This document shows positions 35,616-55,683 of a stretch of DNA of 64,000 bases, one piece after another. Origin of the DNA: Escherichia coli. GTDB lineage: Bacteria; Pseudomonadota; Gammaproteobacteria; Enterobacterales; Enterobacteriaceae. The number at the start of each line of letters is the position of its first letter. The stretch's first letter is position 1. Position numbers and translations under genes: made by a program. The notes beneath the pieces were generated by a model. That model did not search any database. It had not been told where the DNA came from and saw only the letters and a list, made by a program, of their open reading frames with translations. The stretch is from assembly GCF_003790525.1 (NCBI RefSeq), contig NZ_CP033635.1; one strand, written 5' to 3'.

Positions 35616-36029
35616 TCATCCCAAAACCGCTGTGCCCAGCCGACAGGTGCAGCAACGCCGCCCCTGTTCATCGAAAACGACGATTTCCCAGCTCTGATTT
35701 TGTCGTCCAAGATGCAGCGGCTGGCAGACACCGCGCACCTTTCCCTCAGACACCGGGCGATGATGTGTGGCGTTAAGTTCCGTGCCCACCACACACTGTC
35801 CGTCGCGGGTCATCATAAATCCGGCCATCGATCCCAGCGTTTCCGCCAGCGCCGCCGACGCGCCGCCATGCAGCAGGCCAAACGGCTGATGAGTACGGGT
35901 ATCAACCGGCATTTCGGCTTCGAGTACATCATCGCCCAGACGGGTATACACAATTCCCAGATGCGCCACCATTGTGTTATCGCTGGTGGCGTTCAGCTCG
36001 TCGAGCGTTAAATGGCGTTTCCAGATCAT
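35616..36029 (-). CDS. entH: Proofreading thioesterase EntH (hotdog fold)
   Basis: 137 aa, last gene of the entCEBAH operon. Confidence 0.9.
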
Positions 36030-36031
36030 GC

Positions 36032-36778
36032 TTATGCCCCCAGCGTTGAGCCGCCATCGACCACAATATCCTGTAGGGTGATATGGCTGGCGAGGTCAGA
36101 GGCGAGGAACAAAATCGTATTGGCGATCTCCTGCGGACGGGCGATTTTCCCTAGCGGAATTCCGAGTTTAAACTGCTCGCCAAAGCCGCGAATACGCTGC
36201 TCTTCGGCGTCATCGCTCACCCACAGCGTGCGTTGCATATCGGTGTCGGTGGAGCCCGGCGAAACCACATTACAGCGCACCCCGCTACCCGCCAGTTCCA
36301 GCCCAACGCTCAACGCCAGGCTTTTCAGCGCCGCTTTCGACGCGCCATAAGCACTCATACCAATGCGCGGCGTGTGTGCGGCGTCGGACGCAACAGTAAC
36401 AATCGCCCCGCCCCGCTGACGGCGAAACTGGTTCATGGTCTGCTGGAACAGGTTAAACGCACCGCCGACATTGACCGCAAAAGTCTGCTGCCAGTCCTCT
36501 TTACTGAGCTGATCGGTCGCGCCCATGCGCAAAATTCCCGCCGCATTGACCAGCACGTCCAGTCGCTCCGTTTGCGCTAACAGTCGCTGACATACCTGCG
36601 CCACCTGCGCAGCATCGGCAACATCCATCACTTCGGTCGCAAAGGGATATTGCTCCTGAGCGAACGCTTGATCAAAACCGGTGACTTTCGCTCCCGCCTC
36701 AACAAACGCCAGCGCCGTGGCGTAGCCGATACCTTTCCCTGCGCCAGTTACCCAGACATTTTTACCGCTGAAATCCAT
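36032..36778 (-). CDS. entA: 2,3-dihydro-2,3-dihydroxybenzoate dehydrogenase
   Basis: 248 aa from [18 protein letters not shown] (SDR Rossmann motif). Confidence 0.95.
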
Positions 36779-37635
36779 TATTTCACCTCGCGGGAAAGTA
36801 GCTTCCACCAGGCGTCGATGGTCGGGTTTTTCGCCAGCATGACAAAGTCGATATCGCCATGCACTTTGCGCCAGCGCGCCGCCAGCGCCATCATCCGCAC
36901 CGAATCCAGACCGTAGTCGATCAGGTTGTCGTCATCGAACGGTTCATCGGACTCGTCCAGCAACGGCAGGATCACCTCACGCAGCGCCGCTTTGCTGGCG
37001 GGGATAGGTGCTGGCAGCAATTCTTCGGTCATCACCACCCGACCAGAACGTCCGGCCACATATTTCAGCGACATCAAATGCTCGTCACGGCTGAAATCGG
37101 CCAGCGCATCCGCCACCATAAACGGTTTAATATCGCGCATAAATGCGTCCGTTGCGGTGGTCATACAGCCAATGTGGGCATATACCCCGGTAATAATCAG
37201 CTGGTTACGTCCACTCTCTTTCAGCATTTGCTCCAGCGGGGAACGATGAAACGCGCTGTAGCGCCACTTCACCAACACCGTGTCGTCAGCATCTGGCGTC
37301 AGGCGATCCACCACCTTTTGCTGTTCCGGCGAACGGGTCAGGCCTGGCCCCCACATATCATTCAACAGCGCCCGATCTTCATCGCTCTGCTCTTTCGGCT
37401 GGGCGGTGTAATAAACCGGGATATTGTGCTGTTTGCAGTAGTCGCGTAGTGCCGCAATATTCGCGATCACCTGCTCCATCATCGGGCAGTTCTCACCCCA
37501 GAAGCTGACAAAATAGTCCTGCATATCATGGATTAACAACGCGGCACGTTGCGGTTCAAAGGCCCAGTCGACTTTATTCTGCGGAATATCGTGAGAATCC
37601 GGCAGTGCGTAAGCCTGTAATTTTGGAATAGCCAT
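36778..37635 (-). CDS. entB: Isochorismatase / aryl carrier protein
   Basis: 285 aa; isochorismatase domain plus C-terminal carrier domain (GLDSVRMMAL). Confidence 0.95.
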   Translation of the reverse strand: MAIPKLQAYALPDSHDIPQNKVDWAFEPQRAALLIHDMQDYFVSFWGENCPMMEQVIANIAALRDYCKQHNIPVYYTAQPKEQSDEDRALLNDMWGPGLTRSPEQQKVVDRLTPDADDTVLVKWRYSAFHRSPLEQMLKESGRNQLIITGVYAHIGCMTTATDAFMRDIKPFMVADALADFSRDEHLMSLKYVAGRSGRVVMTEELLPAPIPASKAALREVILPLLDESDEPFDDDNLIDYGLDSVRMMALAARWRKVHGDIDFVMLAKNPTIDAWWKLLSREVK

Positions 37636-37648
37636 CGTGTTCTCTCCT

Positions 37649-54888: not shown

Positions 54889-54927
54889 TGCTAACGTCAG
54901 ATTGTTGACAAAGTGCGCGTCGTTCAT

Positions 54928-55027
54928 GCCGGATGCGGCGTGAACGCCTTATCCGGCCTACAAAAATCTTGCCAATTCAATATATTGCAGGATAGTGTAG
55001 GCCTGATAAGCGTAGCGCATCAGGCAG
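54928..55027. repeat. BIME: two inverted REP elements between fepA and entD
   Basis: gccggatgcggcgtgaacgccttatccggcctac and, inverted, gtaggcctgataagcgtagcgcatcaggca. Confidence 0.7.
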
Positions 55028-55062
55028 TTTTGCGTTTGTCATCAGTCTCTAATATGGTCGAC

Positions 55063-55683
55063 ATGAAAACTACGCATACCGCCCTCCCCTTTGCCGGAAA
55101 TACGCTGCATTTTGTTAAGTTCGATCCGGCGAGTTTTTGTGAGCAGGATTTACTCTGGCTGCCACACTACGCGCAACTGCAACACGCTGGACGTAAACGT
55201 AAAACAGAGCATTTAGCCGGACGGATCGCTGCAGTTTATGCGCTGCGGGAATATGGCTATAAATGTGTGCCCGCAATCGGCGAGCTACGCCAACCTGTGT
55301 GGCCTGCGGGGGTATACGGCAGCATTAGTCACTGTGGGACTACGGCATTAGCCGTGGTATCTCGTCAACCGATTGGCATTGATATTGAAGAGATTTTTTC
55401 TGCGCAAACAGCGGCAGAATTGACAGACAACATTATTACGCCAGCGGAACACAAGCGACTCGCAGACTGCGGTTTAGCCTTTTCTCTGGCGCTGACACTG
55501 GCATTTTCCGCCAAAGAGAGCGCATTTAAGGCATGTGAGAGACAAACTGATGCAGGATTTCTGGACTATCAGATAATTAACTGGAATAAACAGCAGGTCA
55601 TCATTCATCGTGAGAATAAGATGTTTGCTGTGCACTGGCAGATAAAAGAAAAGATAGTCATAACGCTGTGCCAACACAATTAA
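55063..55683 (+). CDS. entD: Phosphopantetheinyl transferase EntD
   Basis: 206 aa from MKTTHTALPF (or 209 aa from the ATG at 55054). Confidence 0.9.
   Translation: MKTTHTALPFAGNTLHFVKFDPASFCEQDLLWLPHYAQLQHAGRKRKTEHLAGRIAAVYALREYGYKCVPAIGELRQPVWPAGVYGSISHCGTTALAVVSRQPIGIDIEEIFSAQTAAELTDNIITPAEHKRLADCGLAFSLALTLAFSAKESAFKACERQTDAGFLDYQIINWNKQQVIIHRENKMFAVHWQIKEKIVITLCQHN

Follow-up and report, generated by a model that had tools for sequence, protein, structure and literature searches.

The closest described counterpart of the DNA discussed here is the enterobactin locus of Escherichia coli K-12 MG1655 (b0583-b0597), which is arranged as entD-fepA / fes-ybdZ-entF-fepE / fepCGD / entS / fepB / entCEBAH. 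In this pathway, EntC, EntB, and EntA convert chorismate to 2,3-dihydroxybenzoate (DHB), which is adenylated by EntE and then loaded onto the aryl-carrier domain of EntB. Both EntB and EntF are phosphopantetheinylated by EntD. EntF, together with the MbtH-like protein YbdZ, activates serine, condenses it with DHB, and carries out the cyclotrimerisation that yields enterobactin, while EntH proofreads misacylated EntB. Enterobactin is exported across the inner membrane by EntS, and the ferric complex is re-imported by the TonB-dependent receptor FepA, by FepB, and by FepDGC, and is hydrolysed by Fes. TonB-ExbBD and TolC are also required, for uptake and export respectively, and they are encoded outside the cluster, so any description of such a locus as complete applies to the cluster only. 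We analysed a 64,000-nucleotide stretch of an E. coli genome (RefSeq assembly GCF_003790525.1, contig NZ_CP033635.1), hereafter the window, in which positions 35616-55683 carry the corresponding ent-fep-fes genes.

We are highly confident that 35616-55683 holds the canonical ent-fep-fes locus of the E. coli chromosome, from a strain identical here to SMS-3-5. The region matches E. coli SMS-3-5 (NC_010498.1, 610570-630637) with 100% identity over the full 20,068 bp, and the same 20,068 bp are also 100% identical in a dozen further complete genomes. At least 80% of the region is held in one place in 5411 of 5426 complete E. coli genomes. A preliminary description of this DNA had given precisely this span, and its limits proved exact: positions 35616 and 55683 are the final stop-codon bases of entH (minus strand) and entD, respectively. 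With the K-12 locus the window shares all 16 genes, their order, their orientations, their overlaps, and their protein lengths, and the protein sequences differ by up to 6.3% in EntD and 5% in Fes. The enterobactin cluster here is the standard intact allele and is already known, textbook biology. The preliminary description was correct in calling it well described and not novel. As a discovery the locus carries little weight, being among the best-characterised siderophore systems.

Gene coordinates were taken from the RefSeq annotation of the identical SMS-3-5 sequence and carried over to window positions, and each gene was translated and globally aligned with its K-12 MG1655 counterpart. All 16 genes have the K-12 length, with no gaps and no internal stops, at protein identities to K-12 from 93.7% (EntD) to 100% (EntH). 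Fourteen of the proteins score above the curated NCBIfam cut-offs for the families expected in an enterobactin cluster; EntB and YbdZ have no specific NCBIfam model and pass the Pfam models Isochorismatase plus PP-binding and MbtH, respectively. The claim that all expected genes are present and intact therefore stood for 16 of 16. Unless noted otherwise, the percentages below are identities to K-12, and the bit scores are followed by the family cut-off.

The DHB branch is intact, its three genes having K-12 lengths and at least 98.8% identity. It comprises entC, encoding isochorismate synthase (39269-40444, minus strand, 391 aa; 99.0%; NF011591, 858 bits, cut-off 624), entB, encoding the bifunctional isochorismatase and aryl carrier protein (36778-37635, minus strand, 285 aa; 99.6%), whose Isochorismatase domain spans residues 31-204 and whose PP-binding domain spans residues 217-276, and entA, encoding 2,3-dihydro-2,3-dihydroxybenzoate dehydrogenase (36032-36778, minus strand, 248 aa; 98.8%; NF006074, 442 bits, cut-off 312). 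The assembly line is likewise intact. In addition to the aryl-carrier domain of EntB, it includes the 2,3-dihydroxybenzoate-AMP ligase gene entE (37649-39259, minus strand, 536 aa; 99.4%; NF008192, 1036 bits, cut-off 783) and entF, which encodes the serine-activating nonribosomal peptide synthetase (47104-50985, minus strand, 1293 aa; 97.7%; NF007605, 2805 bits, cut-off 2400) and matches its model at full length (model positions 1-1292). Its MbtH-like partner is encoded by ybdZ (50982-51200, minus strand, 72 aa; 95.8%; Pfam MbtH, 77 bits), the phosphopantetheinyl transferase for EntB and EntF by entD (55063-55683, plus strand, 206 aa; 93.7% without gaps; NF007604, 421 bits, cut-off 169), and the proofreading hotdog thioesterase by entH (35616-36029, minus strand, 137 aa; 100%; NF007607, 315 bits, cut-off 237).

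The genes for export, uptake, and iron release all score above their NCBIfam cut-offs and are free of frameshifts and stops. Export is represented by entS, encoding a major facilitator superfamily enterobactin exporter (41593-42843, minus strand, 416 aa; 99.5%; NF007792, 716 bits, cut-off 324). The TonB-dependent ferric-enterobactin outer-membrane receptor is encoded by fepA (52648-54888, plus strand, 746 aa; 99.2%; NF010048, 1282 bits, cut-off 493), and the periplasmic ferric-enterobactin binding protein by fepB, which has a GTG start (40633-41589, plus strand, 318 aa; 99.4%; NF008200, 520 bits, cut-off 205). Two ATP-binding cassette (ABC) permeases are encoded by fepD (42954-43958, plus strand, 334 aa; 99.4%; NF007760, 628 bits, cut-off 428) and fepG (43955-44947, plus strand, 330 aa; 97.9%; NF007759, 647 bits, cut-off 422), and the ABC ATPase by fepC (44944-45759, plus strand, 271 aa; 99.3%; NF007606, 613 bits, cut-off 497). 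The enterochelin esterase gene fes also has a GTG start (51203-52405, minus strand, 400 aa; 95.0%; NF007758, 705 bits, cut-off 222). The remaining gene, fepE or wzz(fepE) (45756-46889, minus strand, 377 aa; 96.3%; NF007699, 622 bits, cut-off 300), encodes an O-antigen very-long-chain length regulator and has the lowest G+C content in the cluster (0.44). Judging by its family assignment, fepE is a Wzz-type O-antigen chain-length regulator embedded in the cluster, not an enterobactin transport gene. The divergence from K-12 was observed to be uneven, with EntD, Fes, YbdZ, and FepE the most divergent, EntF and FepG at 97.7-97.9%, and the other ten proteins at 98.8-100%.

Predicted Fur sites sit in all three divergent control regions of the cluster, and they are identical or nearly so to sites that have been footprinted or gel-shifted in K-12. 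A 19-bp Fur consensus (GATAATGATAATCATTATC) was scanned over the whole 64 kb on both strands, and 2000 dinucleotide shuffles of each spacer served as a control. The K-12 footprint regions were those of Chen et al. 2007 (PMC2189734, Table 3), shifted by +778 to NC_000913.3, and this shift was validated by the sequences given for Fur boxes 1 and 2 in PMC5020551. The four best consensus positions of the 64 kb all lie within the entS-fepD and entC-fepB spacers. The entS-fepD spacer holds a cluster at 42917-42941 made up of two 19-mers whose starts differ by 6 bp (15/19 at 42917 and 16/19 at 42923). This spacer is identical to K-12 at 130 of 130 positions, and the K-12 site has been both gel-shifted and footprinted (Chen et al. 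2007, PMC2189734).

In the entC-fepB spacer, the entC-side operator (40449-40497) is identical at 49 of 49 positions to the footprinted entC region of K-12; its core 19-mer, AATAATGATTATCATTTAT at 40474-40492, scores 15/19, and it contains the K-12 "Fur box 2" of PMC5020551. The fepB-side box, GAAAATGAGAAGCATTAAC at 40589-40607 (15/19), was located by the consensus scan and the K-12 comparison and overlaps the fepB promoter. The fepB/entC Fur boxes have been functionally tested in K-12 (PMC5020551), and the entC-side box is identical here. The third region holds a putative shared operator of the divergent fes and fepA promoters at 52449-52496, with its best 19-mer at 52470-52488 (13/19). It is identical at all 48 positions to the footprinted fepA-fes region of K-12, and the 3 of 242 positions at which the fes-fepA spacer differs from K-12 all fall outside the operator. 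A fepA-fes promoter and Fur map is cited in PMC10763504, and the window sequence is identical to it. The Fur-box-like sequences that the preliminary description had placed in the fes-fepA, entC-fepB, and entS-fepD regions were thus recovered in each, with matching K-12 sites.

Beyond E. coli, the entC Fur core is invariant in E. albertii and in nine Citrobacter loci, and the entS-fepD cluster is identical in E. albertii and carries two substitutions in Citrobacter. We would like to note that the retrieval pattern for these loci took in part of the fepB box, which leaves only the entC and entS-fepD boxes as independent evidence. If the sites act as in K-12, six transcription units would be fired from the three divergent control regions, each with its Fur sites. 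In iron-replete cells of this strain, Fe2+-Fur would be expected to occupy the sites and block the promoters, and iron starvation would release Fur and derepress the ent-fep-fes locus. Elsewhere in the window, two overlapping 14/19 matches to the Fur consensus, again offset by 6 bp (GGACATGATAATCATTTTTATGGTC), were observed at 29685-29709 inside an open reading frame (ORF) of 406 aa (28830-30050); this pair could be due to chance or could represent an intragenic Fur site.

A genuine departure from K-12 in these control regions lies in the leader of fepB. The fepB-entC spacer is 188 bp long in the window and 374 bp long in K-12, whose extra 186 bp (K-12 L002, 18539-18724) lie between the fepB Fur box and promoter on one side and the fepB Shine-Dalgarno sequence on the other. 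The corresponding junction in the window is at about 40605/40606, within 40589-40632, and meets the two final nucleotides of the fepB Fur box. The edge of the box reads ...GCATTATT in K-12 and ...GCATTAAC in the window (ATT to AAC), so that the last two bases differ from K-12 because the K-12 insertion junction abuts the box. In K-12, the leader folds as a long hairpin (-94.7 kcal/mol, z = -4.85), which the window lacks. The K-12 spacer contains two inverted copies of the BoxC/PIT/TMECO triplex motif (CCCTCNCCC-N3-6-GGGNGAGGG-N3-GGGNGAGGG), which are TMECO nos. 7 and 8 in Table 1 of Holder et al. 2015 (PMC4666352). The 64 kb of the window hold no match to this motif. When the K-12 insert was scanned against Rfam, only sub-threshold, hairpin-driven miRNA matches came back, which we regard as spurious; the element was identified through PMC4666352 instead.

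Among 5426 complete E. coli genomes, 2723 have the long form of the fepB leader. The short arrangement, with 35 nt from the Fur box to the Shine-Dalgarno sequence, was found in E. albertii and in ten Citrobacter genomes (one genome per species scanned), and the AAC ending of the box is common to E. albertii and most Citrobacter. The ent/fep loci of these relatives resemble the window in that the entC-fepB region is short and has both Fur boxes and in that the entS-fepD Fur cluster is conserved, and differ from it by sequence drift between the entC-fepB Fur boxes. Because E. albertii and Citrobacter share the short form, we take that form to be ancestral and K-12 to carry an insertion. The same 35-nt spacing in these genomes rules out the other possible polarity, in which the short leader would be a deletion in the lineage of the window. 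Variation of TMECO presence among strains has already been reported in general terms (PMC4666352). The fepB-leader difference is therefore a known kind of polymorphism, and as far as we found, the literature holds no discussion of it at this locus.

A further non-coding feature of the cluster is a bacterial interspersed mosaic element (BIME) in the 174-bp fepA-entD spacer (54928-55026, plus strand). It is extragenic, lying between the fepA stop codon and the entD start, and consists of a Y-type repetitive extragenic palindromic (REP) sequence, a 35-nt spacer, and an inverted short REP. The first REP, GCCGGATGCGGCGTGAACGCCTTATCCGGCCTAC at 54928-54961, matches the canonical Y-type REP at 34 of 34 positions, and the second, GTAGGCCTGATAAGCGTAGCGCATCAGGCA at 54997-55026, is in inverted orientation; the inverted arms are CTTATCCGGCCTACA and TGTAGGCCTGATAAG. 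The preliminary description had entD downstream of fepA, behind a BIME of two inverted REPs, and this arrangement is what we found. An exact match to a REP_Z pattern was also obtained, but that pattern had been built from the window itself, and the match, being circular, was not counted as evidence.

The inter-REP spacer (54962-54996) contains ATTCAATATATTG, a sequence like a binding site of integration host factor (IHF), which comes near the IHF consensus and agrees with WATCAANNNNTTR at 8 of 9 specified positions. BIME-1 elements, also termed RIP (RIB) elements, are composed of a Y REP, an L spacer with an IHF site, and a Z1 REP, and the element here shows a Y-type REP, an inverted shorter REP, and a 35-nt spacer with the IHF-like sequence. 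On our reading, the fepA-entD element fits the BIME-1 type with a predicted IHF-like site in its spacer; the subtype (BIME-1/RIP, with Z1 and L motif) is one that we presume from the published consensus. The Rfam small RNA (sRNA) model ES036 (CssrF) was also observed to match the inter-REP spacer (54963-55004; 44.4 bits, cut-off 37.6), which raises the question of whether the ES036/CssrF family represents a dedicated sRNA or perhaps no more than the motif of the BIME-1 spacer. A 110-nt query containing the BIME matches a median of at least 40 places per E. coli genome, and the 20-kb query of the whole cluster hits about 38 places per genome because the BIME is multi-copy. A literature search retrieved nothing usable on REP elements at fepA-entD or on CssrF.

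As fepA and entD have been treated as one operon (PMC10763504), entD would be co-transcribed behind fepA, across the BIME. By analogy with other REP-containing operons, the REP hairpins would most likely shield the upstream fepA message from 3'-5' decay and lower the expression of the distal, catalytically acting EntD. The suggestion in the preliminary description that the BIME may modulate read-through or mRNA stability is, on the same analogy, a reasonable one.

These readings of the non-coding features have to be set against simpler or competing ones. Fur-like sequences could be chance A+T-rich matches in promoter DNA and not operators, and two results limit the reading as Fur sites without contradicting it. 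At fes-fepA, the 13/19 score was reached in 161 of 2000 shuffles (p about 0.08) and is not significant by consensus alone, so that this site is credible only because it equals the footprinted K-12 operator. At fepB, the window departs from K-12 in the Fur box and in the distal 6-7 bp of the K-12 footprint, the footprinted region being identical to window 40582-40612 at 25 of 31 positions. The spacers in question are indeed 58-69% A+T. Nevertheless, three control spacers that are equally A+T-rich (fepA-entD, fepE-entF, and entH-cstA) reach just 9-11/19, whereas the 16/19 of entS-fepD was reached in 0 of 2000 shuffles and the 15/19 of entC-fepB in 6 of 2000. Over the whole window there is one match with at most three mismatches, against none in 100 shuffles. 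Together with the identity to experimentally footprinted or gel-shifted K-12 sites, these controls refute chance matching for practical purposes, and we give that explanation next to no credence. A different objection accepts the cluster and its Fur sites and holds that fepB is regulated unlike in K-12, with Fur repression or FepB translation altered by the short leader and by the two nucleotides changed where the Fur box ends. It draws on the position of the 186-bp difference, right on the 3' border of the fepB box, and on the loss of so stable a hairpin. However, both alleles of the box score 15/19, the promoter hexamer region and the Shine-Dalgarno sequence of fepB are unchanged, the short form is the ancestral, cross-genus conserved arrangement from which K-12 deviates, and earlier tests of BoxC/PIT elements found neither promoter nor terminator activity (PMC4666352). 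We consider altered fepB regulation in this strain unlikely, and favour Fur control of the three regions as in K-12.

For the BIME, the competing explanation is that it is a neutral selfish repeat without effect on entD read-through or fepA mRNA stability, entD expression depending on nothing but the fepA promoters and entD's own translation signals. The family does number about 40 detectable copies in a genome, spread over many loci unrelated to each other. No intrinsic terminator was detected in the fepA-entD spacer, and a promoter-like match within the BIME spacer (TTGCCA, 16 nt, GATAGT) is weak, such matches being no more frequent than expected by chance. On the other hand, the BIME is fixed at fepA-entD in essentially all E. 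coli, and the spacer is 98% identical to that of K-12 with the same BIME. As RNA, the spacer is predicted to fold very stably (-70.6 kcal/mol, z = -5.8), and in other operons, such as malE-malF, REP hairpins are established barriers to 3'-5' exonucleases. We find neutrality of the element doubtful, if somewhat less so than altered fepB regulation, and prefer a modulating role of the BIME in fepA-entD expression.

Downstream of the cluster, the window departs from SMS-3-5: like strains 702/18 and EC332, it carries an insertion sequence IS186 between entD and hokE, where SMS-3-5 has none. This IS186/IS421-family element lies directly downstream of entD, at about 55791-57134, and at least 80% of the 2-kb stretch bearing it is found in only 284 genomes. 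Armstrong et al. are said to have described, in 1989, REPs upstream of entD and IS186 downstream. A literature search on entD together with IS186 yielded nothing usable. The G/C-rich target of the element is the one used by K-12 IS186B, and the flanking GGGATTGCTCCC-type repeat is shared as well, but the two elements have opposite orientations relative to entD and hokE. Opposite orientation at the same target suggests an independent IS186 insertion at a hot spot. By comparison with strain 702/18 and K-12 IS186B, a 1-bp deletion at 56004 in a CCCCGGGGGG run splits the 370-aa IS186 transposase into ORFs of 79 aa (55843-56082, plus strand) and 316 aa (56010-56960, plus strand); the split reflects either a pseudogene or a sequencing error in the homopolymer. 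Adjoining IS186 is a hokE/sokE type I toxin-antitoxin locus (57153-57452), with hokE at about 57153-57305 on the minus strand and an Rfam sok match at 57297-57452 (81 bits). Other Rfam matches above the gathering threshold outside the cluster are a cspA-type thermoregulator 5' untranslated region (9305-9753, minus strand), the rnk leader (22732-22840, plus strand), and STnc70 (26603-26696, minus strand).

What the comparison may add to the biology of E. coli concerns the fepB leader, the sole feature here that goes beyond textbook knowledge. We tentatively propose, as an idea with the odds against it, that the K-12-type 186-bp BoxC/TMECO hairpin, lying flush with the fepB Fur box, is a widespread natural polymorphism that tunes ferric-enterobactin uptake, the window keeping the roughly 30-nt leader of the ancestral form. 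The K-12 fepB-entC bidirectional promoter, as used as a tool and as a Fur model, has a 374-bp spacer that includes a lineage-specific BoxC insertion, the ancestral region being 188 bp. If the insertion does alter Fur operator strength, mRNA stability, or FepB translation, the K-12-based picture of fepB regulation would be that of a derived allele.

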